Source of the DNA: Cyanobacteria bacterium P01_D01_bin.156
GTDB lineage: Bacteria > Cyanobacteriota > Cyanobacteriia > Phormidesmidales > Phormidesmidaceae
Length of the DNA: 64,000 bases
Reading direction: 5' to 3'
Assembly: GCA_039024555.1 (NCBI GenBank)
Contig: JBCCQQ010000011.1
Location: 1-64,000 of the forward strand
Positions 25,181 through 61,440 of the stretch are shown in pieces. The notes under the pieces are model-generated. The model worked only from the letters and a program-made list of their open reading frames with translations. It ran no database searches and was not told the DNA's origin. Position 1 is the first letter of the stretch. Each line of letters begins with the position of its first letter. Position numbers and translations under genes: made by a program.

Positions 25181-25211
25181 AAGTTAAACTGTTAGTCCTT
25201 GGCAGGGAGCC

Positions 25212-25247
25212 GAGCAGGTGAGAGTGGCTAGCCACTCTCACCTGCTC
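25212..25247. repeat. Perfect 36-bp palindrome with no spacer, downstream of flv3
   Basis: GAGCAGGTGAGAGTGGCT|AGCCACTCTCACCTGCTC. Confidence 0.95.
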
Positions 25248-25767
25248 ATCAAAATTTAAGTTCCAATTGAAGAGTACTTTATGCTCATGTCATTGGCTAA
25301 AACTGAGGACATCCAAAATAAGAAATGTAGTACATCCTTTTCAAAGCTGAAAGATACTCGAGTCTGACTCAAAGTTTGCCAAAACTGCTACATGTTGCGA
25401 TCGCACCTAAAAGTCGCAACATACTTAAGTACCTATCCTGTAGAGGTTTAGTTGAGCGGCGAAGAGGGTTTAAGGCTTGCCAGACAAAGGGTTGAACCTC
25501 CTCAAAGATGACTTGCTGATGACTCAGATGGTCTGACTGACACCCAAATGACGTCAAAGAAATTTGAACCATAGCAATGATTATCTAAGAGATCGAGGTT
25601 ATTAGTCTCTAGTATCCATTGATCCTGTTTTTAGAACTTGAAATAAAATACTGTATTATTTAGAGAACATAAAATTAAGATTTGCTCCAGGTTCTAACAG
25701 TTCTCTTCGTTAGAGCTTGAGGGTTGTTGTGGCTATCTCGACAACAGTTTTTTATTGAAGTGCCTCT

Positions 25768-28700
25768 ATGATAGTTCAGCTACGTTTTTGCACCTCGTTA
25801 CTAGTTCCTCTCTTAGCGTGGTCTGGATTTTTTCAATCTGCAAGTTTTGCTAGTTCTAAGACTGGAGCAACAGATCGGACTACTCCGGCTCAAATTTTAC
25901 AAAATCATGTAGGCATTCAAAACACTGGGCCTAGGAATCAGCAGGCAAGTAATTTATTATCACTATCGCCGGAACAAGTAGAAGTTCTACCTTTTCAGCC
26001 GGATTGTCAGAGCAACGATCAGTCATGTACCGTATGGTCTGAGTTCCGACGGCCATACCCCTATCCGACTCAACGAATCGCTGCAAAAATTGTCAATGAT
26101 GAGGAAATGATCCTCGTCATTTCTGAACCCCCGAATAATTTAGACAAACAACAATGGCGTCGTCTCATTGAGTCCACATTTAAACGCGATTTGCTTGAAT
26201 ATCAAACATTCAAGTGGATGATTGGAGTCGATGGTTGGGTTGAAGATATTGTTTTAAGGGTCAAAAAGCCAGATGTTGAGCAAGAAGAAGATCTACTAAA
26301 CGATAGGCTTACTCGCGATCGCATTGCCTTGTTAAATATTGCCATGTTTGGTTCCAGTCTAGGGGCGACGATAGAGCCCATAGATGCTAATGGTTCGATG
26401 CAAAATCTCGTTAAAATTCCAAATCTGCGTCTATCTGCAGATGAAGTTTTGGGTTGGGTAACAGATAGGCAGATTGATTGGCAGCCCCTCAATACCTCTG
26501 CTACCCCTAGCAGCCACTGGCTGGAAGAGTCAGCTACTGGCACCCGACAAGTCATGGTGTCTGCCGATAAAACGCTGGTATTACTCACATTTCCACTGTC
26601 GGATATTTTGGCCGCTCGGCAAAGGGGGGCATTACCCGAAGACTTGAAAGTCGCATTTCGAGAGTTTGTCGTCAGCTCAGACATTATTCTGAGTGGTGCT
26701 TGGAGCGATCAGCAAGTGGCCATTGTGGCGCGAGCGCGCCAGGTTCCTGTGACAGATTTTCCACCACTGCGGGTTGAAACCTTTGAACTCCTGGCCGCAC
26801 AAAAGACAACTGAGCTGGCCCAGAGCTATGAACGCACTAACCTATTCGCTGGCAAACTGTTTACCGGGGAGTATGAGCTTAGAGACTGGGCTCCCATCTA
26901 TCTGAGCCCAGCACTGATCAACACTGAACTGGGTGGGCTGCTCAATATTACCGATCAGATGCTCAAGTCCTGGTCTATGGCAGGCAAGGTTGAATACTTA
27001 TATTTTGACTATCCTCTTAAACCTAATCGGTTCCCATTCAATGGCGTGCCTCTCAGTGAGGTGGTTTTTGAAGAAACTGGCAGCCCACAGGTCCTATTTA
27101 ATTGGAATACTACAGGCATGGGTTCGGTTATTTCTGGAGAACCCTCCATTCTAATACCCACTCAAACCGGAGCCTTACCCGTTACCTATGGGTCTGAGCT
27201 TGAACAAGGGGGAGAGATCGAAACTGGGCATCTCCAGCGGTATGAAGAAGAAGCCTATGACTACTTTGCAAATTTACAAGACCCCAGCCTAGCCACCGTT
27301 GTTCAATACACGTTGCTCTATCAACTAATGCTGGCAGCCGCCCCCCTGCAGTCTAGTGAGTTTACGTCTGAAGCTAACGGAGGGGCTCAGGTTCTAGACG
27401 ACTACGCACTCAACTTTATTAGAATCCTAGATACAGCTACTGAAAGCGATTTGGCAGATGCCAGAGAACTCTTGTCAACTTTTCGCGCAGACCACCCCGA
27501 CATAGATGACTCACAATTAGCTGCTTTACTGGCTAATCCCAGAACAGGTCGAGCTCAGTTTCTAGACGGGTTCGATCAGGATTTTGCCCTGTTATCTGAC
27601 TTGGACAATTCATTGTCAGAACGGATCACCGCATATATTGAGCTATTTGCCGAAATTGATGCCAGAGACAAACGTCTACAGGCGGAAGTTAACCAATTTA
27701 ATCGTGAGGTAGACCGTCTAAATCGCCAGGGGGGAGCTAGCCCCAGTGAAAGTGCCAGGATGGAAGAGTGGCGTGCCTCCATAATTGCTACCGAAAACGA
27801 GTTAGCAGCGTTGAGTGCCACACTGGGACAACGTCAAACCGAGATTGAACAAATTCAACAAAGGCAAGCCAACATTAGCCAATCAATTGACCAAGCCGCT
27901 GCAGGGATTAATGCGTTATTAACTCAAGTTCAACCGTTGGTGGCACAACTAAAGGAGTCTGTGTATCTGGTGAATGAGCTGGACGAGGTCAGACTGGCAT
28001 TTAGTAACGCCCATTCAGTTTCCGCCAATAGCTGGATAAAAACCCCTGCAAGCGTACTTTCTTGGCAAAGGGAAAGGGGAAGTGTATCCCTCTTTAGTGT
28101 AGGTGGCCATAATCTTGACTCCCAAACATTACGGTTTGAAGAAAATCCTGGTATAAGCAGCTTACAAGTTGTTGACACACCGTCAGGCCAAGTATTACAG
28201 TACCCGCCTAATCAGCGTTCTGGGGTTTTATCCAATGCGTCTGAACTATCGCGGCAGATAGAACATCGAGGCATTACCGATCCTCAGGTTTTGTCTAGAA
28301 CGATCCAGGGTCCTGGCAACATTCGTCCCCGACGGGAAGCCTTAGCCATGAGTCAATCCCCGGCTCCTGAAATAGGCAGGCCCGTCAGCAACAATGTGGA
28401 ACTTGTTAGTGAGCTACAGGGCCTAGTTGAAATGAATGGTTGCTGTAGATTTGTTGCCAATGATGCCGATGGTGTTGCGTATCTAGCGTCTATGAATCCT
28501 TCGCCCCCGCCCCCGGTCAGGATCTCAAGCTATGGGGATACGCCATCGCTACTAAATGCTTTAGATACTCGATTTCGTTCTCCCCTCGACTCCAATGAGC
28601 CAATTGTACTGTTAGGAGATACTGGACGGGCTGATGCGATCGCACGAAGCCTTAGGGCAAATACCCAACAATCGGCATCTCTCCTTGGAAGAATGCCATG

Positions 28701-29289
28701 GTTAACTAAACTTGCCGAGATAGTTAATCTTCCCATAGGTCCCGTTCCCCGCCAGCCAAAGTCAGTCACTGTTCTCAAATACAGAGGTAATAACAGATTA
28801 GACTCCTTACAAGTTTCTTTAACAGACCAAGCTAACCCCGCGATCTCAGTTAATCAAGTGGTGGATGGGTTATCAGCCCGCATTCAACCGAATACCGCAG
28901 GTGTTCGAGAAGTTCCTAACCCAGGGCTTGATCTGAACCTACCGTCAAGATGGCAACAGGCCGCTAATGAAGGGAAACTGGCGGTCATCAACTTTTCCTA
29001 CGCCGAACAAGGCCCTCTGGGAACTTCAACAAACGTTTACTTTTCTAGCCTGGTCAATGAACCGGCCCAAGTTCCAACGGCACGGACAGAGATGGTAAAT
29101 GTTACGAACAGCTTTATTGACACTAGCCTGACTCAAGAGACACCAACCTTTGATGCTTTAACCGATATTAGGCAACAGATTGAAGAACAGTTGAAATTAC
29201 TGTCGGACGATCAGGTCGATATGCTGCTTGAGCGTAAGCTAGATACTTATTACATTACTGATGACAATCACAGCAACGACAATAGTTAA
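25768..29289 (+). CDS. Large secreted hypothetical protein (1173 aa) with central coiled coil
   Basis: Uninterrupted 3.5-kb ORF; N-terminal signal-like segment; heptad-rich region at about aa 600-745; no family recognised. Confidence 0.85.
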   Translation: MIVQLRFCTSLLVPLLAWSGFFQSASFASSKTGATDRTTPAQILQNHVGIQNTGPRNQQASNLLSLSPEQVEVLPFQPDCQSNDQSCTVWSEFRRPYPYPTQRIAAKIVNDEEMILVISEPPNNLDKQQWRRLIESTFKRDLLEYQTFKWMIGVDGWVEDIVLRVKKPDVEQEEDLLNDRLTRDRIALLNIAMFGSSLGATIEPIDANGSMQNLVKIPNLRLSADEVLGWVTDRQIDWQPLNTSATPSSHWLEESATGTRQVMVSADKTLVLLTFPLSDILAARQRGALPEDLKVAFREFVVSSDIILSGAWSDQQVAIVARARQVPVTDFPPLRVETFELLAAQKTTELAQSYERTNLFAGKLFTGEYELRDWAPIYLSPALINTELGGLLNITDQMLKSWSMAGKVEYLYFDYPLKPNRFPFNGVPLSEVVFEETGSPQVLFNWNTTGMGSVISGEPSILIPTQTGALPVTYGSELEQGGEIETGHLQRYEEEAYDYFANLQDPSLATVVQYTLLYQLMLAAAPLQSSEFTSEANGGAQVLDDYALNFIRILDTATESDLADARELLSTFRADHPDIDDSQLAALLANPRTGRAQFLDGFDQDFALLSDLDNSLSERITAYIELFAEIDARDKRLQAEVNQFNREVDRLNRQGGASPSESARMEEWRASIIATENELAALSATLGQRQTEIEQIQQRQANISQSIDQAAAGINALLTQVQPLVAQLKESVYLVNELDEVRLAFSNAHSVSANSWIKTPASVLSWQRERGSVSLFSVGGHNLDSQTLRFEENPGISSLQVVDTPSGQVLQYPPNQRSGVLSNASELSRQIEHRGITDPQVLSRTIQGPGNIRPRREALAMSQSPAPEIGRPVSNNVELVSELQGLVEMNGCCRFVANDADGVAYLASMNPSPPPPVRISSYGDTPSLLNALDTRFRSPLDSNEPIVLLGDTGRADAIARSLRANTQQSASLLGRMPWLTKLAEIVNLPIGPVPRQPKSVTVLKYRGNNRLDSLQVSLTDQANPAISVNQVVDGLSARIQPNTAGVREVPNPGLDLNLPSRWQQAANEGKLAVINFSYAEQGPLGTSTNVYFSSLVNEPAQVPTARTEMVNVTNSFIDTSLTQETPTFDALTDIRQQIEEQLKLLSDDQVDMLLERKLDTYYITDDNHSNDNS

Positions 29290-29303
29290 TCAGAGGGGCA
29301 ACC

Positions 29304-30662
29304 ATGGGCAACGTTGCCATTCTGTTTGGTATTCCTATCCACGAGGCAAGCTTTCTTTCCAGGGTCGCTGAGTCCGATTATTTGAGGCTATACCGCAGTT
29401 CTTTAAAAAACCGCGACGAGTACGATAAATATATAGCTGAGCCATTTCGTGACATGGCGACTCAAGTCGACCAACATAGTAATTTTGAGGTTCGAACAGG
29501 AGCTACCTTAAAGGATCTCCAAGAGGTCTCTAAAACAGCCAATGTCATCATTGTGGTCTCTCACTGGAAAAACTATGGCTTTTCCAACAATGACATTATT
29601 AGACCCGTTAATAAAAACAGCTTTGCTAAAGCGGCCTCTCAATCAGACGACCCTTTAGCACAATGGCTTGCCCACAGGTTAAACCGTCATCTAGAGGCTG
29701 GCAAACATCAAAAATCGACTTTTATGGCTAGTTGGCTTGACTCTATAAGGAATTTATGGAGAACTGAGCTGACCTTACGTGACATCCTAGAGCAAGCTTT
29801 AGATGTTCCGTTAGAGAATGAGTTACCCCAAATAGAAGAAGTTTCGCAACATGTTGAATCGGACTTAACTCGCCGCACTAGACGTCGTCGCTGGATGGAT
29901 ATGCTGTTTGCTAACCTAGTCTTACCAGGCAATCGGCTAGAGTTGTTTGACGGCCTACATAATAGTGCTGCTATTGCTCAGTCAATAGACAAAAGTTTTA
30001 ACGGTGTGCTAGACCTGACGGCCTGCACGTCCACCGCTCTCGCCGACTATATCAGCAATTATCATCAGTATCGCTTTCGCGTAGTTCAGTTTAGTGAAAA
30101 CCAAGAACCTGTATGGGCTGCGACTGTCTTAAAAATTACTCTAAAGTCACTTTTGGGTTATCGTGACCCTGCAGATTCTGCTCATTATCTAGATGCTCGT
30201 CAGCATGCTATTCAACTGACTCGTCAAACCTTACAATCCAGGTGGCTTGCCCAACATAAAAAGAAAAATTCAAGATTTTTAGGAGGAAAGCTGATAATGG
30301 CGCTAAAGGCAGTACTCAGTAGACAGGCAAGTCAATGGCAGCAGCTAGGGGGAGAGCCCGTCCGGGCAATCAATGCTTTATTTGCTTACAAAAAAAGTAT
30401 CGTTAAACAACTGTTGGTCAAGACTATTGTTTCGTCAGTTCTACTGGCCGGTGCTGCATACTTGGCAATCACCTTATTCTCAGATCAATCAGCACTAGCC
30501 GTTGTCATTGTGGCCATTTTTCCAATTGCCTCAGGTTTAATCACGGACTTATTTGGCACATGGAAAGAACTCCACTATTCCAACTTGCTCCTGTTGCTGA
30601 TTCAAGATGCCAACGACGAGCAAATCAAGGATATTATTGATACCCTATTAGACAAGCTATAA
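29304..30662 (+). CDS. Putative divergent CHAT/caspase-like protease fused to a C-terminal 2-TM module
   Basis: GAGGGG RBS, 14 nt after the upstream stop; ATLKDL..VIIVVSHW (H87), LELFDG, VLDLTACTS (C241); two hydrophobic helices near the C-terminus; internal AGGAGG + ATG 30297. Confidence 0.6.
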   Translation: MGNVAILFGIPIHEASFLSRVAESDYLRLYRSSLKNRDEYDKYIAEPFRDMATQVDQHSNFEVRTGATLKDLQEVSKTANVIIVVSHWKNYGFSNNDIIRPVNKNSFAKAASQSDDPLAQWLAHRLNRHLEAGKHQKSTFMASWLDSIRNLWRTELTLRDILEQALDVPLENELPQIEEVSQHVESDLTRRTRRRRWMDMLFANLVLPGNRLELFDGLHNSAAIAQSIDKSFNGVLDLTACTSTALADYISNYHQYRFRVVQFSENQEPVWAATVLKITLKSLLGYRDPADSAHYLDARQHAIQLTRQTLQSRWLAQHKKKNSRFLGGKLIMALKAVLSRQASQWQQLGGEPVRAINALFAYKKSIVKQLLVKTIVSSVLLAGAAYLAITLFSDQSALAVVIVAIFPIASGLITDLFGTWKELHYSNLLLLLIQDANDEQIKDIIDTLLDKL

Positions 30663-30759
30663 ACCCATAATCTTCAATCAAGGTCAATATCCACCACGAG
30701 AAAACAGTTTTACTAAAACCGTATATTACTGCTCAGCTGATTCCGCACTGTTAGCTTCA

Positions 30760-31100
30760 CCCTGAGACTGCACATTTTGAGCAAGTTCTAGATGGATAGT
30801 TTCTTGGAACTGTTCTAACGCTTGTAACAATCTCAGCTGCGGTAGCGTAGGATTTTGGGCAGTCAATCGAGCGGCGTTCGCCAGGTTTCTCAATGCAGCG
30901 GTCTCCCCGCGAGCCCGTTCTAGCTGGGCTAATCCTTCTTGACGTGCCTGTACTACTACCTAGGCATAGAGCTTTTTGAGTTCACTTGGCAGCAGGATAT
31001 CACGAGCCGATAACATCTCTAAGCACTGTTTGCACCGTTAAGTAAAGTCCCTGACGATAGTCCGCTACCTGGTTCAAGGCCTGGGGAGGTTTGTCATTCG
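30760..31100 (-). pseudogene. Decayed SPFH/band-7 (slipin-like) gene
   Basis: Minus strand reads QALNQVADYRQGLYLTVQTVLRDVIG, then in another frame RDILLPSELKKLYA*VVVQARQEGLAQLERARGETAALRNLANAARL..NPTLPQLRLLQALE; internal deletion/frameshift and in-frame TAG; boundaries approximate. Confidence 0.8.
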
Positions 31101-31273
31101 ACCATTGAAGGGGTAATAAGCAACCCTCAGCCAGTTGATACTGACCCAAGGTGCTAACGATCCCTCAATAGAGTTAGGGTTTCCCAAACCCGTGTAGTTG
31201 TGTATCAAACTCGACGGTTAACAAGCAAAAGTTAGCATCGCTCATACAGAAGAGAAGCCGAGCGGTTACCAGC

Positions 31274-31340
31274 GGAGTTGGGAGTTTTGAATTCGGAGTT
31301 CGGAAACCTCCCTTTCTAACTTCCAAACTCCGAATTGATT
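31274..31340. repeat. Degenerate heptamer (STRR-like) repeats arranged as an inverted pair
   Basis: GGAGTTG GGAGTTT TGAATTC GGAGTTC ... AACTTCC AAACTCC GAATT. Confidence 0.6.
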
Positions 31341-31374
31341 CATAGCCGAGTTTTTCTGGCTTAATCGATACCCT

Positions 31375-32187
31375 TTAGCTCGCTGTCTTGACTTTAGTGG
31401 CCAATCCTAACGTTTGGAGCAGCTGAATCACCATCCAAACCAGATCAATTTCCCACCAATTCTTTTGGAAGCAGGCAGAAGACTGACAAGCATGATGGTT
31501 GTTGTGCCACCCTTCACCATAAGTGATTAGGGCAACCCACCAGCAGTTAGTAGACATATCGTTGGTCTCAGTGGGGCGATAGCCAAACTGATGACAGGCA
31601 CTGTTAACAAAGCAGGTACCGTGAAAGCTCACAAACAGTCTTACAAAGACTCCCCACACCAAAAAGGGCATACCGCCCAACAGATAAAGGGCTAACCCTA
31701 GGGCCACCTGCAGGCCAATGTAGTTGTTGTGGCAAAACTGGTAAAACTTATCGTCACGGATATCTTGGGTCATGCGAGGCAGCATCGAGTGGGTGGGCAC
31801 CGTATGCATTAACCAGTTGATATGACTCCACCAAAAGCCCTTAGTAGCACTGTGGGGATCTAAGTCTTGATCCGTGTGCTGATGGTGCAAACGATGGTAG
31901 CCGACCCAACCATAGACACCGCCTTGGAAGGCTAGAGTACCTAACAGAATAAACAGATGCTCTAACCATTTAGGAACACGCAGGCTGCGGTGGCTAGCCA
32001 TGCGGTGAAATCCCAGGGAAATACCAAGGCCCTGAGTTAATGCATGCAAACCAACGGCAACACCGATAGCGCTCCAACTAAAATTACTTGGCAGCAGCGC
32101 TAGAAGAGCTAAAACATGAAGAATAATTGTTGAAATTACCACCGACCAGCGTAGCCGGGGCGTGGGTAAGGCTGCTGTAGAAACCAA
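31375..32187 (-). CDS. desC: Delta-9 acyl-lipid desaturase family protein
   Basis: His boxes HRMASH, HRLHH, HNNHH; GEGWHNNHH; WWEID. Confidence 0.88.
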   Translation of the reverse strand: MVSTAALPTPRLRWSVVISTIILHVLALLALLPSNFSWSAIGVAVGLHALTQGLGISLGFHRMASHRSLRVPKWLEHLFILLGTLAFQGGVYGWVGYHRLHHQHTDQDLDPHSATKGFWWSHINWLMHTVPTHSMLPRMTQDIRDDKFYQFCHNNYIGLQVALGLALYLLGGMPFLVWGVFVRLFVSFHGTCFVNSACHQFGYRPTETNDMSTNCWWVALITYGEGWHNNHHACQSSACFQKNWWEIDLVWMVIQLLQTLGLATKVKTAS

Positions 32188-33919: not shown

Positions 33920-36070
33920 TTGTGGCAGTGGTTTTCATCCAATCAATACATGCCCCATGGGCATTGTTACCTATGGCAAACGCCGTTGGTGAGCTTACAT
34001 GTGGTCAGCAATATAGTGATTGCCCTGGCCTATTTTTCCATTCCATTGACCTTATTTTATTTTGCATTTAGGCGCCGCCACGAAATTGCCTCTGTTCAGG
34101 TATTCTGGCTATTTGGAGCTTTTATTACTCTTTGTGGCACAGGTCATCTCTTAGATGTTTGGACTCTATGGTATCCAGACTATTGGGTATCAGGCATCGT
34201 TCGAGCCTGTACGGCTCTTGTATCAGCACTTACAGCTGTTGAGCTGATCACCCTGTTACCTAAATTTTTAACCCTCAAATCACCCTCTGAACTGGCCCAA
34301 GTCAACCAACAATTAAAAATAGAAATCAACCGTCGCCGTAATGCCCAAATCGCTTTTCAAAGCTTAGTTGCCTGCACCTCTTTAACCACAAGCGAAGAAT
34401 TCTTTTCGACGCTTGTGGTCAGTTTGGCGATGCTGCTAAATGTGAAAACTGTTGTCATGGCAGAGCGCGCTGACTTGGAGACTTTTGAGCTGCGGGCCCT
34501 AGCCATATGGCACCATAACAAGCTACAGGCCAATAGGTCTATGGCGGCGGCTCAAGTGCTCTGCACAGAGGTCCTCGAAACGGGCAAAATGTTGCACTGT
34601 CGGTCTTCTCAACCCGATGAGAACTTGCCCATAGAACAGTTTGAAGCCACCACATATCTGGGAGTTCCCCTACTAGATAATCAAGGTCAGGTAATTGGCG
34701 TACTGTTCATTCTCCACAGCAAGCCTTTGGAAGATCTTGACCTAGCACAATCGTTTTTACAGGTGTTTGCGGCTCGTTCAGCGGCAGAACTTAAACGTAC
34801 CCATGCCGAACGAGCGTTACAAAATGCCCATGATGATTTGGAAAATCGGATTCAACAACGTACGGCTGAACTACAAACTGCTAAAGATACTGCCGAGGTA
34901 GCCAATCGCGCTAAAGGTATATTTTTAGCAAAAATCAGCCACGAGCTACGCACTCCCCTCAATGCAATTTTGGGCTTTACCCAAGTTATGGCTCAAGATG
35001 CTGCTCTGTCTACAGAACATAGTCGTTCCCTAGAAATCATAGAGTCTAGTGGTTCTCACCTACTCGATTTAATTAACAATATTTTGGACTTTATTCAGTT
35101 AGACATGGACCATGCTCAGCTCCAGCTCCATGAAATCGATTTGTCGAGGCTTTTTTATCAGTTGGGGGGAATGGTTCAGCTAAAAGCTCAAGACAAAGGG
35201 TTAAAGCTACGGGTAGAGTGCGATCGCACTTTACCCAAACGTATTCGTATCGATGCCAGTAAACTAAGGCAAGTTGTTCTAAATCTGCTGGATAATGCCA
35301 TCAAATATACCGACGTGGGCCATGTGTCGCTCAAAGCCCACTCCATTCATCAAGCCAGTACTGTTTACTTAGGCATAGAAATCTCTGACACCGGCCGAGG
35401 CATTAATGACCGTGAACAAAAGAGAATCTTTAATCCCTTTTACCAAGCCACCCTACCCTCTACAGTACATGACGCCAGCGAGCAGGGGGTAGGGCTAGGA
35501 CTCGCGATCTGTCAGAGCTTGATCAAACTCATGGGCGGTGAAATCCGCTGCCACAGTACCCTTAACAAAGGCTCCACATTTTATATTCAGCTGCCAATAG
35601 AGGTAGTCCAGCCAACGACTACTCAGCCCCCCAAACAACCCTTAGCCCCATCTGCAAATATCGTCCAACACCACCATGAGATTTTGGTTGTTGAAGATGC
35701 CCCCACCAACCGTCTGCTATTGCGCAACATATTGGGTGCCTCGGGTTTCCAGGTGCGCGAGGCTGAAAATGGTCAACAAGCGATTGAACAATGGCAGATT
35801 TCCCGACCATCCCTTGTTTTAATGGATATCCAGATGCCGGTTATGAATGGCTATGATGCCACCACCCATATCAAAAAGAAGGATCCCAATTTACCCATCA
35901 TTGCCCTAACCGCCAGCACCTTCTCCGCTCAGTTAGAAGAGATTTTCGCTGTCGGCTGCGATGCTTGTATTCACAAACCCTTCAAACGGGGGCATCTGCT
36001 AAAAGTTATTCAAGCACATCTGCCAAAGGTTGCTCCACTGGAAACGCCCCCCATCACTCAATTGGCATAA
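33920..36070 (+). CDS. Hybrid histidine kinase with ethylene-receptor-like TM domain, GAF, HisKA/HATPase and REC
   Basis: MPHGHCYLW..LAYFSIP..FGAFITLCGTGH; SHELRTPLN; N and G boxes intact; LVLMDIQMP. Confidence 0.9.
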   Translation: MWQWFSSNQYMPHGHCYLWQTPLVSLHVVSNIVIALAYFSIPLTLFYFAFRRRHEIASVQVFWLFGAFITLCGTGHLLDVWTLWYPDYWVSGIVRACTALVSALTAVELITLLPKFLTLKSPSELAQVNQQLKIEINRRRNAQIAFQSLVACTSLTTSEEFFSTLVVSLAMLLNVKTVVMAERADLETFELRALAIWHHNKLQANRSMAAAQVLCTEVLETGKMLHCRSSQPDENLPIEQFEATTYLGVPLLDNQGQVIGVLFILHSKPLEDLDLAQSFLQVFAARSAAELKRTHAERALQNAHDDLENRIQQRTAELQTAKDTAEVANRAKGIFLAKISHELRTPLNAILGFTQVMAQDAALSTEHSRSLEIIESSGSHLLDLINNILDFIQLDMDHAQLQLHEIDLSRLFYQLGGMVQLKAQDKGLKLRVECDRTLPKRIRIDASKLRQVVLNLLDNAIKYTDVGHVSLKAHSIHQASTVYLGIEISDTGRGINDREQKRIFNPFYQATLPSTVHDASEQGVGLGLAICQSLIKLMGGEIRCHSTLNKGSTFYIQLPIEVVQPTTTQPPKQPLAPSANIVQHHHEILVVEDAPTNRLLLRNILGASGFQVREAENGQQAIEQWQISRPSLVLMDIQMPVMNGYDATTHIKKKDPNLPIIALTASTFSAQLEEIFAVGCDACIHKPFKRGHLLKVIQAHLPKVAPLETPPITQLA

Positions 36071-57344: not shown

Positions 57345-57809
57345 CTAAGCTGAGCTGACCTCATCTGGTAAATGTACAAGTTGAAACCAGTATGTGCCAA
57401 GAATTTTTACAATATCAACCATGGATTGAAAGTTTACAGGTTTAGTAATAAATGAACTAGCACCTAAATCATAGGTTTTCAGAATATCTTCTTCGGCTTT
57501 GGAGGTGGTTAATACTACAACTGGGATGCTACGTAACTCAGGATTATTTTTAATCTCTTCTAGAGCTTCACGACCATCTTTTCGAGGCATATTAAGATCC
57601 AATAAAATTATCGAAGGGCGAGGGGCAATGCCAGGTTCACTATAATTTCCCCGTCGATATAGATAATCCATAAGGTCTTCTCCATCTTCAACGAAGTACA
57701 GTTCGTTGACAAGTCGATTTTCGGCTAAAGCCTCCCGAGTAAGAAGGCGATCGTCTTCATCATCATCAGCCATTAGAATAATGACAGGTTTACTCCGTTG
57801 TTGAGACAT
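57345..57809 (-). CDS. Single-domain response regulator (Rcp1-like)
   Basis: ILMADDDEDD, PSIILLDLNMP, VVLTTS, FITKP, YWF; start ATG 57809 overlaps the kinase 3' end. Confidence 0.92.
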   Translation of the reverse strand: MSQQRSKPVIILMADDDEDDRLLTREALAENRLVNELYFVEDGEDLMDYLYRRGNYSEPGIAPRPSIILLDLNMPRKDGREALEEIKNNPELRSIPVVVLTTSKAEEDILKTYDLGASSFITKPVNFQSMVDIVKILGTYWFQLVHLPDEVSSA

Positions 57810-60800
57810 TCTCTTCTCCTTGAAAATGATGAACTGGGAGGGTAGCAATAAAAATTGATCCCTCTCCAGGCTGGCTTTCTGCTCGGAGCGTGCCCCCGTG
57901 GCGACGAATCACCTTACGACAAATTGCTAAACCAATACCGCTGCCTTCATAGACTTTCCGCCCATGGAGGCGCTGAAATGGTTGAAAAATGCGATCGCAA
58001 TACTTAACATCAAAACCTATACCATTATCGATTACCCTCAATTCACAAACCTCCTTTTCTCCTACAAGTGAATGTAATACCCTCACCTGAATCTCGGGTA
58101 TTACATCAGGTTTATGAAACTTGAGGGCATTACTCAGAAGATTTTGAAAAACCTGTTGCATTTGCGTACGGTCAGCATCGATCGTCGGTAGCGGATCTAC
58201 ATCTACGGTAGCTCTAGTTTGCTCAATACGAACCTCTAAATCTGATAAAACCCCCGCCATAACTTGTGCTAAGTCCGTAGGAGTAAAGGGTTTAGCTTGC
58301 GTTGTCACTCGCGAAAAACTCAGCAAATCATTAATAAGTGTCTGAGCACGTACTGCCGCATTTAGCATTCGGGCTAAATAGTCTTGCCCCCTTTCAGACA
58401 GTCCATCTTGGCAGGTATGGCTTAACCGATCGCCAAAGGCTTGCACTTTTCGTAAGGGTTCCTGAAGATCGTGGGACGCCACATAGGCAAAGTCCTGAAG
58501 TTCCTGATTACTTTCCTCTAATCGTTCGGTAGTATGCTGCAGAGTCTTAATTACTTGCTGACGCGCTATGATTTCAGTCTTAAGTTTTTGCTCTGCTACC
58601 TTACGCGCAGAAATGTCCCGCATGATTGTTGAGTCACCAATGATCTGACCAGACCGATCCCTAAGGGGAGAAATGGTGAGCGAGACGTCTAACAGTTTAC
58701 CGTTTTTATGGCGTCGCGCTGTTTCAAACTGTTCAATGCCCTTACCTTGTTTGAGCTGTTCAAAACTTTGACTAGCTTCAGCAACGTGATCCATCGGAGA
58801 AAGCATGGTCACCGGTTGCCCAATGGCCTCTAATGCCGAATACCCCAATAGTTTTTCGGCCCCCGCATTCCAGCTGGTCACAACCCCACTGAGATCTTTT
58901 GTGATAATGGCATCTTCGGTAGACTGAACCACTGCTGCCAGCAACCGGGACGTTTGTAACGCTCGATAATGCTGCACCGTGCGCCAAACCAAGTTGGCAA
59001 TTAACTGCACCGTTTCAACATCCATATCGGTGTAGTTATTGTTCTTGATGCCCACTCCTGTGAGCATCACAACTTTGCCATTTTCAATAACAGGAACACT
59101 CAAGAGACGATTAAGCTGCTCATGTTCTTTAAGTTCCCGTTCTTTAAGAAGCCCTTGGTCATGTGAAGAGGGATCACAGGGGCAATTGTAGATCACAGGC
59201 TGACGCTGATGTAGAACATCGGCCAAAATCCTCGCCTGATCAATAGAAGGTTGAGGCTTACAGACAGTATTCCCCAAGGCAGTTAATGGTCTTTGTTCCC
59301 CATTCACCAGTTCAAACGTTTCTTGATCCCCATGCACCAGATACAGAAATGTCATCTGGCTACCCGTTAGGGTCTTAGCAATGTCCTGAGCCTGCTGCAT
59401 AAATTCCTGTTCATCCAACTGCTCAGCTAACTGTGGTAGCTCTAATAAAGCCTCTGCCCGACGTGCCTGGTGGGTCAGAGCTAACTCAGCGGCATAAATT
59501 TTTGAGATATCTCGCACGCTAACTACGGCCCCGGTAATGGTTCCATCTTCTTCGCAATAGGGAACATAGGTAACATCCAGATACTCCTGTAGCTCATCGG
59601 TCAGGGAAAATAGGCTCTGATAGTTAACTTTGTCCCCGGCAAAGGTACGGTCCAAATTAGGTTTTACAGTTTGCAAAAATGCATCCTCGCCTAGAAGCTC
59701 CGCCACTGAATGACCAATAATCTCGGCTTTAGATTTACCAAACTTTCGAGCATAGGCATCATTGACCATGGAATAGATATAGTTGCAATCTATAAACGAC
59801 ATATGGTCAGGCGTGGTACAAATTGCTCTCTCATAGAGGCGCAACATCTCTTCCGTTTGCTTTCGAGCATTAATATCTTCAACAATGCCAATCAAGTAAC
59901 CTGGTTTACCACTGTGTCCGCTTACTAATGAACAGGTCAAATTAGTCCAGGTTACAGTCCCATCTTTGCGAAGATAGCGTTTTTCCATGCGGAACGTGTC
60001 AACCTGACCGGTAAGTAGCTGTTGCACATTATCCAAATCAGTCTCCAAATCCTCTGGATGCGAAATATCTTGGAACGAAAGATTTAAAAGTTCTGCTTTG
60101 GCATAACCAACAATCTCGCAAAAGCGCTGATTGACGCGCAAAAGCTTGCCAGTAAGAGAAACATGACCAATTCCTACAGCCGCTTGCTCAAAGGTATTTC
60201 GGAACAGGGCCTCTTGTTGTGCGACTTCATTTTTAGCCGCTTTCAGTCGGATTTCTGTTTGTTTACGCTCAGTAATATTAGTGAGGCATCCTATATAGCC
60301 AACCGCTTCATGGGCATGGTTGAATTCTGGGACAGCTTCCTCATATACCCAGGTTACTGGCCCCGATGGACGGCCAAACCGATATTCCAACTTAAAGGGA
60401 AGATTCTGGCTAGTAGCTTTATGCCATTCTGCCAAAATGTTGTTTCGATCCTCTGGATAAAGCCCCTGGGTCCACCCCGTCCCTAACATTTGCTCACGAG
60501 ATAACTGAGCAATACTACACAGATGTTCATTAACGTAGATACAGTTGCCATGAGTATCTGCACGAAAAATTCCTACCGGGGCAGTAGCCGCAAGGCTAGT
60601 AAAGCGTTTTTCAGTCTCTATCAACAGGTTTTCGGCGTTTTTACGAGCGGTGATGTCGTAGTTAGTTCCAATCATCCGCATGGGGGTTCCTTGGTCATCC
60701 CATTGAACTAGACCATCTGCTTTTCGATAGTGGATTGTGCCATTGGCATGAATAACTCGATATTCAATGTCATAAATAGCTTCATCACGTAAAGCACTCT

Positions 60801-61440
60801 GTATAGCAGCTTCTACGGCTGTGCGATCCTCTGGATGAATACGCCTAACCCAAGCGTCGTAATCTTCCCCAAATGTCTCTGGAGAAGTGCCGTATAGTCT
60901 GTGCAGCCGATGATCCCATACCACCCTATTGCAAGGGATATCCCAATCCCAAATACCAATACCTGCGGCTTCTAAAGCTAAGTCCAATCGGGTAGATAAT
61001 TCTCGCAACTCAGCCTCAGTGTGTCGATGTGCAACGATTTCCTGCTCCAATTGTTGCCTTAAAGCCTCTAGTTCAGCGGGAGTGCGCAACTCTAACGCTT
61101 TGGGAATCAACGGAATGATGGCAATCGCTGCATATGCAGAGATCCCGGCTGTTATCGCTTTAAGAATACCGGCAACCCAGTAGCCCGAATGCCATAGATT
61201 CGAAACTCCAACCAAATGCGTAGTTCCACAAAAAATGATAACTACCGCAAAAAGTAGAAAATATTTCGAAAAGATCACATTGCGGCGCTTTCTGAGGAAA
61301 TATAAAAGAATAATGAGAATAAAATAGTAAACCAGCCCAATCAGGGTATCGGATACTAAATGTAATCCAACCAAGCTAGATGTCCATAAATTACAATAGC
61401 CACGGGGTATGTACTGGCTAAGCAAAAGGATACTGAACAT
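57790..61440 (-). CDS. Multi-PAS/GAF histidine kinase with ethylene-receptor-like N-terminal TM domain
   Basis: YIPRGYCNLW..LHLVSD..FCGTTH; about five PAS domains, GAF, ASHDLQEPLRK, NLLSNALKF, DNGIG, GSGIGL. Confidence 0.92.
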   Translation of the reverse strand: MFSILLLSQYIPRGYCNLWTSSLVGLHLVSDTLIGLVYYFILIILLYFLRKRRNVIFSKYFLLFAVVIIFCGTTHLVGVSNLWHSGYWVAGILKAITAGISAYAAIAIIPLIPKALELRTPAELEALRQQLEQEIVAHRHTEAELRELSTRLDLALEAAGIGIWDWDIPCNRVVWDHRLHRLYGTSPETFGEDYDAWVRRIHPEDRTAVEAAIQSALRDEAIYDIEYRVIHANGTIHYRKADGLVQWDDQGTPMRMIGTNYDITARKNAENLLIETEKRFTSLAATAPVGIFRADTHGNCIYVNEHLCSIAQLSREQMLGTGWTQGLYPEDRNNILAEWHKATSQNLPFKLEYRFGRPSGPVTWVYEEAVPEFNHAHEAVGYIGCLTNITERKQTEIRLKAAKNEVAQQEALFRNTFEQAAVGIGHVSLTGKLLRVNQRFCEIVGYAKAELLNLSFQDISHPEDLETDLDNVQQLLTGQVDTFRMEKRYLRKDGTVTWTNLTCSLVSGHSGKPGYLIGIVEDINARKQTEEMLRLYERAICTTPDHMSFIDCNYIYSMVNDAYARKFGKSKAEIIGHSVAELLGEDAFLQTVKPNLDRTFAGDKVNYQSLFSLTDELQEYLDVTYVPYCEEDGTITGAVVSVRDISKIYAAELALTHQARRAEALLELPQLAEQLDEQEFMQQAQDIAKTLTGSQMTFLYLVHGDQETFELVNGEQRPLTALGNTVCKPQPSIDQARILADVLHQRQPVIYNCPCDPSSHDQGLLKERELKEHEQLNRLLSVPVIENGKVVMLTGVGIKNNNYTDMDVETVQLIANLVWRTVQHYRALQTSRLLAAVVQSTEDAIITKDLSGVVTSWNAGAEKLLGYSALEAIGQPVTMLSPMDHVAEASQSFEQLKQGKGIEQFETARRHKNGKLLDVSLTISPLRDRSGQIIGDSTIMRDISARKVAEQKLKTEIIARQQVIKTLQHTTERLEESNQELQDFAYVASHDLQEPLRKVQAFGDRLSHTCQDGLSERGQDYLARMLNAAVRAQTLINDLLSFSRVTTQAKPFTPTDLAQVMAGVLSDLEVRIEQTRATVDVDPLPTIDADRTQMQQVFQNLLSNALKFHKPDVIPEIQVRVLHSLVGEKEVCELRVIDNGIGFDVKYCDRIFQPFQRLHGRKVYEGSGIGLAICRKVIRRHGGTLRAESQPGEGSIFIATLPVHHFQGEENVSTTE

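Follow-up and report, generated by a model that had tools for sequence, protein, structure and literature searches.

An apparently undescribed bacterial module of a caspase-fold protease, a predicted exported partner and an interchangeable third gene

The window analysed here is a 64,000-nucleotide (nt) stretch of contig JBCCQQ010000011.1 from Cyanobacteria bacterium P01_D01_bin.156, and our subject is a pair of open reading frames (ORFs) within it, ORF1 (25768–29289, 1173 residues) and ORF2 (29304–30662, 452 residues), which both lie on the + strand with a gap of 14 nt. Together they encode a real, conserved and rare three-part module: a large protein, A (the product of ORF1); a protease, B (the N-terminal part of ORF2); and an interchangeable third protein, here a two-helix membrane protein, C, joined in frame to B. 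It is, apparently, an undescribed system of the protease-gated effector kind. A first-pass annotation, made from the letters of the stretch, had noticed this co-oriented pair and placed it between a flv-type gene and desC; re-derived coordinates confirm that observation, with three corrections concerning the flanks. Its interpretation, a sensor–protease–membrane effector module, is partly supported: the fold of B, the co-occurrence of the parts and the separability of the two-transmembrane (2-TM) part hold, and we add that the effector can be swapped and that the tail of ORF1 is predicted to bind the protease. The reading we favour, with chances we put at about even, is a protease-gated suicide module in which an activator, A, is held across the inner membrane from B. 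The parts of the module, all on the + strand, are as follows.

25768–29289, +: gene A, an unannotated family of ~1000–1200 residues, predicted exported, proposed activator of B (from homologues and model)
25768–25848, +: signal-peptide-like N-terminus of A, residues 1–27 (hydropathy rule)
26005–26028, +: Cys80–Cys87 pair of A, likely a disulfide (pattern in 100/120 A proteins)
26755–27342, +: most conserved core of A, residues 330–525, resuming at 757–782 past the coiled coil (no named fold found)
27574–27972, +: antiparallel coiled-coil hairpin of A, residues 603–735, inserted in the core; poorly conserved, variable in length
28396–29262, +: variable C-terminal module of A, about residues 877–1165, predicted to bind B (complex model)
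29304–30260, +: B, divergent CHAT/caspase-fold protease domain (predicted from fold and conservation), ORF2 residues 1–319, no signal peptide
29562–29564, +: His87 of B, predicted catalytic; invariant in 131 sequences and present in 100/101 locus sequences
30024–30026, +: Cys241 of B, predicted catalytic; invariant in 131 sequences and present in 98/101 locus sequences, the other 3 having gaps
30281–30299, +: internal Shine-Dalgarno-like AGGAGG and ATG (Met332) at the B–C junction, where homologues begin gene C
30297–30662, +: C, two-helix membrane protein of 121 residues, here an in-frame fusion with B; proposed pro-effector, N-in/C-in topology predicted (homologues and charge bias)
30345–30350, +: Leu348-Gly349, equivalent to Leu17-Gly18 of C, predicted cleavage site (conserved motif and the Runella precedent given below)

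Gene order is conserved and the third slot is interchangeable

A search with residues 60–600 of A found 359 homologues. Members occur in cultured, non-pathogenic strains of Paraburkholderia, Methylomonas, Bradyrhizobium, Sorangium and Almyronema, and the named members that we looked up are annotated as 'hypothetical protein'. To describe gene neighbourhoods, we used 68 loci from a GTDB scan and 80 of 150 confirmed loci from a metagenome scan; removal of those with <1400 nt downstream of A (7 and 19, respectively) left 61 in each set. The GTDB loci span 11 phyla. Going by tree labels, 22 loci are from Acidobacteriota, 20 from Bacteroidota, 14 from Pseudomonadota, 3 from Myxococcota and 2 each from Cyanobacteriota and Gemmatimonadota, and five other phyla have one locus each. 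We take all these phyla to be diderm except for the one Bacillota record.

B lies beside A in 57 of the 61 GTDB loci and 59 of the 61 metagenome loci. The gap from A to B has a median of −4 nt, the start of B falls within 150 nt of the end of A in 110/113 cases, and the distance from B to C is no more than 100 nt in 83 of the 85 cases without a fusion. Co-occurrence of ORF1, the protease part and the 2-TM part across phyla, as the first-pass annotation envisaged, is borne out in both sets. The third slot holds C in 45 GTDB and 49 metagenome loci and a different protein, D, in 12 and 9; the two were never found together. D consists of a β-rich domain of ~135 residues with no Pfam match, followed by TIR_2 or DUF4062, one of which scored above the Pfam cut-offs in all 10 D proteins scanned. 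The β-rich domain may be immunoglobulin-like, which is a guess on our part. The TIR_2 form usually sits behind an N-terminal membrane anchor, and the DUF4062 form is found in Bacteroidales, fused to B. DUF4062 is described as a TIR-like NADase (10.64898/2026.05.01.722283). On a quick tree of A cores, D requires 5 changes (at least 4 judged by starred branches), and hence the third slot has been swapped or lost repeatedly. The effector slot is interchangeable: TIR/DUF4062 forms replace the 2-TM protein, and the two kinds are mutually exclusive.

The distribution of the module is patchy. A was absent from all 21 congeners and B from all 400 other cyanobacterial genomes; in 401 genomes of the phylum to which genome G419 belongs, searched for B without A, true B was found in the centre genome only, and four weak matches looked unrelated. 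The GC content at third codon positions is 0.42 in both ORFs, compared to 0.60 in flv and 0.52 in the downstream Fe-S gene.

B is a divergent caspase-fold protease

The model of B is of high confidence (predicted local distance difference test, pLDDT, 94.7), and the best 25 rows of a VIA-align search with it are all caspase-clan folds, with SAVED-CHAT (8tl0) at the top (Z 14.8, root-mean-square deviation 3.2, 161 aligned residues). Foldseek also ranked 8tl0 first, but with an E value of 0.04. Among 131 aligned B sequences, His87, Asp97, Arg195 and Cys241 alone are invariant, and His87 and Cys241 each lie at the end of a predicted strand. The His and Cys motifs that had been picked out in ORF2, in caspase order, are thus these two conserved residues, and the caspase/CHAT fold proposed for this part of the protein is upheld by the fold search together with the conserved His-Cys pair.

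ORF2 had no Pfam or PADLOC match and one weak NCBIfam match (E 0.023); Pfam CHAT (PF12770) matched neither ORF2 nor any of 12 close B sequences at E ≤ 1; and a PDB sequence search with ORF2 returned nothing under E 0.1. The ESM Atlas gave only unnamed clusters under 0.9 and CHAT/DUF6642 leads. By features, the cluster closest to ORF2 (score 0.86, no more than a lead) is an unnamed family of 333 residues, recorded mostly from archaea (Bathyarchaeota), and B-like proteins may exist without A.

At 50% identity, B comprises 872 representatives. Short homologues, mainly from Bacteroidota, have 37–39 residues between the His and the Cys, versus ~115–155 in the long form; since the short proteins lack it, long B carries a helical insertion of ~115 residues between the two. 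A signal-like stretch was found in 3 of 158 B proteins.

C is normally a separate gene

The membrane module noted earlier in ORF2 consists of two hydrophobic helices, at residues ~370–392 and 398–418. Ten of 11 close ORF2 homologues are 304–328 residues long and end where the membrane part starts, indicating that ORF2 is a fusion of two normally separate genes. The suggestion that the 2-TM part is a module of its own fits these data: it is usually encoded by its own gene and carries the likely cleavage motif. One homologue, P0003, 60% identical to ORF2, is a B–C fusion likewise. Independent fusions (P0003, P0170, L061, L062 and L102) rule out an assembly error as the source of the B–C fusion; a search for longer C fusions had ORF2 itself as its sole match, which is weak evidence. 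Given the internal ribosome-binding-type sequence and Met332 at the junction, C may also be made separately from an internal start. A second Leu-Gly dipeptide, Leu326-Gly327 (30279–30284), lies in the B–C linker and overlaps the Shine-Dalgarno-like sequence; the P0003 fusion lacks it, and it may be there by chance.

The charge bias fits an N-in/C-in arrangement in 53/53 C proteins. Apart from two glycines (columns conserved at ≥90% among the 53 sequences), C is poorly conserved. No Pfam family matched more than 2 of the 53 members, and a PDB sequence search with the C profile found nothing under E 0.1.

Unrelated effectors share a Leu-Gly-type motif

The first of the two glycines of C, Gly18, is found in 93 of 96 aligned C proteins, on the side of the membrane predicted to be cytoplasmic; the residue before it is L in 36, F in 18, A in 18, M in 12 and another in 9. 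In D, which is unrelated, a Leu-Gly occurs within 60 residues upstream of the domain in 22/22 distinct proteins (background 0.34), and in B–D fusions it occurs within about 12 residues of the domain start in 13/13 (background 0.075). The partners at loci L042, L121 and L065 also have a Leu-Gly in a linker-like place, as judged by eye. At the level of sequence, then, effectors with no relation to one another carry a common Leu-Gly-type motif immediately before the effector part. In Runella, a CHAT protease cuts its gasdermin after Leu247 and requires the Leu-Gly dipeptide (10.1101/2021.06.07.447441). The presence of a common motif in unrelated effectors, taken with this precedent, suggests that Leu-Gly is the cleavage site of B, and we predict that B cuts the third protein at a Leu-Gly-type site.

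Gene A encodes a predicted exported protein with a variable tail

ORF1 falls below the curated cut-offs in Pfam and NCBIfam, with weak, mostly coiled-coil matches there and in PADLOC (PADLOC-DB 2.0.0, E 0.003 or worse), in keeping with the earlier remark that neither ORF belongs to a recognisable family. A Pfam scan of 43 A members revealed no consistent family, a PDB sequence search with the A profile returned nothing under E 0.1, and the ESM Atlas held no usable match. The model of A (mean pLDDT 86.3) shows globular domains and a conserved core with 31 invariant columns (alignment of 119 sequences), into which a coiled-coil hairpin is inserted; the C-terminal module is variable. The core motif may resemble DUF1598, a family absent both from 3 genomes searched and from the controls. 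The coiled coil recognised earlier in ORF1 is this antiparallel hairpin, at about residues 603–735. Fold searches with the whole model were dominated by the coiled coil and returned coiled coils only, so they do not establish the fold of the core as new.

By simple hydropathy and charge rules, a hydrophobic stretch is present at the N-terminus in 104 of 120 A proteins and follows a net positive region in 94 of the 104. A lipobox-like motif is present in 19/120, an internal TM-like stretch in 4/120 and a Tat-like motif in 1/120. The copy in the window scores 1.92 for N-terminal hydrophobicity, just below the cut-off of 2.0.

Tails of A fall into 6 BLAST groups plus 7 singletons. They vary behind a constant, exported-type N-terminal part, which invites comparison with polymorphic toxins; most tail groups keep B as their partner, and may be divergent homologues of one another. 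The idea that the tail is a pseudo-caspase was rejected, there being no profile match to B. Such an architecture could also mean that released A carries a C-terminal cargo (a B-binding module or a fused protease) into kin that hold B and a pro-effector, making it an intercellular death or danger signal. Apart from the constant N-terminal part and changing tail, this would account for a natural A–B fusion (P0126) and for two loci, L042 and L121, where B is missing, the tail of A has His and Cys in caspase order (by eye), and a two-helix gene with Leu-Gly follows. We nevertheless consider cell-to-cell delivery unlikely. Many A N-termini resemble uncleaved anchors or lipoprotein signals, the L042 and L121 tails have neither a Pfam match nor a profile match to B, the genes adjoining A are B and the effector with no recognised immunity gene, and no translocase fold was found for A in the coiled-coil-dominated searches.

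The C-terminal module of A is predicted to bind B

We modelled A residues 787–1165 with B residues 1–319, each supplied as an alignment, and obtained a complex score of 0.67, versus 0.00 for the best of three controls. The mark applied to such scores is reached by 116/157 solved complexes and 2/215 mismatched pairs, and is rough with custom alignments. The runs agree in at least 29% of contacts, and the partner has a pLDDT of at least 78. Predicted contacts join the strand 917–927 of A to residues 179–189 of B, and A 1134–1154 to B 244–311, adjoining Cys241. The model supports direct binding of B by the C-terminal module of A, and P0126 joins A and B in one chain with a signal-like N-terminus.

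These results bear on the topology first proposed, in which A remains outside, detects a cue there and passes the signal across the membrane by way of C (through its short outer loop) or D (through its anchor), so that B is activated at the membrane, untouched by A. That A looks exported and C spans the membrane agrees with such an arrangement. Direct A–B contact in the model (with controls at zero) speaks against it, as do the A–B fusion and the Bacteroidales versions, in which B is fused to a soluble effector and there is no membrane partner; we regard it as quite improbable. The predicted binding, the fusion and the Bacteroidales versions, set against an A that looks exported and has no second membrane helix, and a B whose sites look cytoplasmic, pose a compartment puzzle. 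A purely extracytoplasmic A could not contact cytoplasmic B in an intact cell. The most economical view takes the separation of A from B as the control.

The same interface admits the opposite sign. It covers B 244–311, next to Cys241, and could block the protease as well as activate it; A, or a cytoplasmic fragment of A, would then hold B inactive, and loss of A would unleash it in the manner of a toxin–antitoxin pair. However, an inhibitor that is exported could not hold back a protease in the cytoplasm, this role would give no account of the large invariant core of A, and at locus L021 the tail of A was lost together with B. A guard role for A seems to us just as improbable as signalling from outside.

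A working model and the evidence against it

The suicide-module reading takes as its basis the gene order, the fold of B, the conservation of its His and Cys, the exclusion between effectors and their common motif, all shown by the data above. On this model, the inner membrane would keep the partners apart in a healthy cell, with A exported or anchored on its outer side and both B and the Leu-Gly sites in the cytoplasm. Envelope damage, blocked export or a triggered self-translocation by the A core and its coiled-coil hairpin would bring the A tail to B. A would act as the activator of B once its C-terminal module enters the cytoplasm, and B would cut after Leu. Cut C would shed its 17-residue N-terminal helix and oligomerise into a membrane lesion; in other lineages, the fragment comprising the β-domain and TIR/DUF4062, freed from its membrane anchor or from B, would consume NAD+. 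The outcome would be cell death or arrest, limiting phage or another attacker. A more specific version, in which the module is a compartment-breach alarm, is possible but clearly more tentative: phage entry, an attacking toxin or A's own triggered translocation would bring the A tail inside, switching on a Leu-Gly-specific caspase and, through it, the death effector of that lineage, be it a membrane pore or an NADase. If true, this would be a prokaryotic counterpart of cytochrome c logic in apoptosis, and A might contain a new protein-translocating fold.

Several points weigh against the suicide-module reading. Both locus sets hold near-duplicates and kin, so the counts overstate independence, and 4 of the 61 GTDB loci have no B. 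Chain A is of low confidence in the complex (pLDDT 52–57), and A–B binding could be inhibitory instead of activating. Signal peptides and topology were called by the hydropathy and charge rules rather than by a predictor built for the purpose; no canonical membrane-crossing segment is seen in A, which also matched no known pore or translocase fold, although its coiled coil dominated those searches. In C, the residue preceding Gly varies and is small in about a quarter of cases, and covariation of this residue with B columns gave nothing above noise. The genomic context is also weak. Only 9 of 118 nearest neighbours match PADLOC at E 1e-12 (a figure with no matched control), of which several are generic (2 kinases, a 2OG enzyme) and about 4 plausibly defence-linked, and the window otherwise consists of housekeeping and signalling genes. 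With so few defence-linked neighbours, the module is not clearly an island gene, and the conflict reading is based on the identity of the effectors, their swapping and the patchy distribution.

This context would suit a non-lethal role, in which B processes C or the TIR protein to yield an envelope or developmental signal (a second messenger or released peptide), akin to HetF- or DdvA-type regulatory proteolysis. In the same direction, viral contigs contained no A relative and plasmids neither an A core nor B, and TIR domains can produce signals (10.64898/2025.12.03.692087). No conserved regulator was seen adjoining the module, however; the exchange of TIR/DUF4062 with a two-helix protein in one slot fits executors better than a signal source; and the absence of A and B from relatives, along with the distinct third-position GC, fits a mobile conflict gene set. 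We judge signalling to be less likely than delivery to kin, if a little less remote than the guard and outside-sensor schemes.

Variant loci

Several loci depart from the usual plan. At the two Bacteroidota loci without B, L042:9911–13721 and L121:6812–10507, inspection by eye shows the His and Cys motifs of the A tail in caspase order, and the gene that follows encodes a two-helix protein of ~210 residues with a Leu-Gly site. That protein, which has no Pfam match, may be SLATT-like. The L042 tail was tried as a B-like domain and rejected for want of a profile match to B. At L065:9890–15369, A has a weak peptidoglycan-binding match and a long, different tail, and a true CHAT protein takes the place of B; the C-terminal β-rich region of this protein, of unknown family, starts after a Leu-Gly site and is a possible further effector. 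L021, L056 and L138 have a shortened A and no B, and L100 has a divergent C. An extra gene lies between A and B at L063:12854–13951; its product begins with a separate signal-like N-terminus, contains a coiled coil and is similar to the A tail, in the manner of an orphan tail cassette. Two A homologues have a long N-terminal extension before the hydrophobic segment (~490 residues and helical in P0069, Cys-rich and zinc-ribbon-like in P0073), possibly a cytoplasmic sensor part. In seven loci the effector gene is on the opposite strand, converging on B, with Leu-Gly kept (L006:14243–15313, L008:14535–15527, L011:14727–16742, L043:13596–14336, L079, L080 and L082). A second caspase-clan gene (CHAT; Peptidase_C14) adjoins the module at L025:13992–14957 and L066:15482–16426, and a TPR-CHAT gene lies upstream in L004.

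Flanking DNA

ORF1 and ORF2 have a flavodiiron protein gene (flv) on their left and a fatty-acid desaturase gene (desC) on their right, as first described. Two flanking features lie outside the module.

25212–25247, no strand: perfect palindrome of 36 nt at the 3' end of flv, probably terminator-like
~30732–31100, −: decayed SPFH/Band_7 gene with stops and a frame change

The palindrome had been taken as a border of the module. It is real, but a similar hairpin directly follows flv in 5 of 6 congeners; it therefore belongs to flv, and we ruled it out as an insert boundary. The left-hand side was also described as repeat-like, a claim that does not stand: 25181–25767 has no second copy anywhere in the genome, which eliminates left-hand repeats. 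A dispersed repeat lies instead on the right, directly after desC (~31275–31375); it contains a 16-nt inverted pair at 31290–31336, and incomplete copies of it occur on 10 or more further contigs of this genome. The decayed SPFH gene reported on the right is genuine. An intact Band_7 counterpart follows desC in the 2 congener loci examined, and the remnant is this resident gene. The comparison suggested earlier, of related genomes for flv3–desC adjacency without the insert, showed that the two genes are not adjacent in any of 6 congeners, which also differ from one another in the DNA that follows flv. The site is thus a variable junction and does not represent a clean insertion between conserved neighbours.

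Gene content suggests an oxygenic, cyanobacterial-type phototroph as the host, with a genome of 6.6 Mb that comes from a marine metagenome record. A contig from a sequencing run, possibly of the source sample, spans 25218–31744 with zero differences. Promoter and terminator scans gave no signal above chance. Elsewhere, the window is rich in GGDEF/EAL genes and contains two ethylene-receptor-like (ETR1_N) histidine kinases, at 33920–36070 and 57790–61440, all of which represent ordinary cyanobacterial signalling.

Relation to known systems

The closest functional parallel is the Runella gasdermin–CHAT pair, where a caspase-like protease likewise sits beside a membrane pro-effector with a Leu-Gly dipeptide (10.1101/2021.06.07.447441). 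Here, the substrate would be a 121-residue two-helix or a TIR/DUF4062 protein with no gasdermin, the motif is on the N-terminal side, and B, which lacks a fused TPR/LRR/NACHT sensor, has a large, predicted exported protein as its partner. Modules of proteases with MBL, α/β-hydrolase, Pepco or EACC1 effectors (10.1101/2025.11.14.688446) share the principle of a latent effector unleashed by site-specific proteolysis and modular swapping, and in the hydrolase module a Gly follows the cut. In the part of that preprint covered here, their effector is constant and the protease-fused sensors vary, whereas in our module A and B stay the same and the effector changes; no family mentioned in that part corresponds to A, C or the β-domain of D. 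EACC1–caspase loci, as defined in PMC7159879, have a single-TM EACC1 with α+β extensions upstream of a caspase fused to variable domains; C has two helices, a downstream position and no consistent Pfam family.

The closest solved folds of B are SAVED-CHAT of type III CRISPR (8tl0, Z 14.8) and Csx29/TPR-CHAT (Z 9–10). In contrast to SAVED-CHAT, the module shows no SAVED, TPR or CRISPR link, and B has the helical insertion and ~12% identity in the aligned part. As in type IV Thoeris, some loci homologous to ours pair a caspase-fold protein with a TIR domain; in that system, TIR makes the signal and the caspase executes, whereas in our loci TIR stands behind a Leu-Gly site and is exchangeable with a membrane protein. 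There is no TIR at the locus in the window, and D-type loci make up only 12/61 and 9/61. DdvA (8rot), among the fold matches of B with Z 9.2, forms with DdvS of Myxococcus a system that ties extracytoplasmic sensing to a CHAT fold in anti-phage defence; there the CHAT sits in the periplasm with an incomplete active site and regulates a sigma factor (PMC11506125), and B differs in having no signal and keeping both residues.

A more distant analogy comes from animal apoptosis, in which cytochrome c, a protein kept behind a membrane, activates a caspase through Apaf-1 and caspase-9 upon failure of the barrier. We claim no homology, the module has no STAND ATPase, and the analogy is conditional on the trigger proposed above. 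In full-text literature searches, with supplementary candidate-defence tables and subscription papers outside their coverage, we found no description of the module.

Implications

Protease-gated effectors are a growing class of bacterial immunity, and in those compared here the sensor is a cytoplasmic domain carried by the protease itself. In the present module it is the effector that changes, and a large, predicted exported protein without a known family stays constant; effectors have apparently been recruited by the addition of one short cleavage motif. The module raises the prospects of a Leu-Gly substrate code across unrelated effectors, a new two-helix pore candidate, and an outside protein that activates an inside caspase. 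If the compartment model holds, the activator family and its topology would be categorically new.

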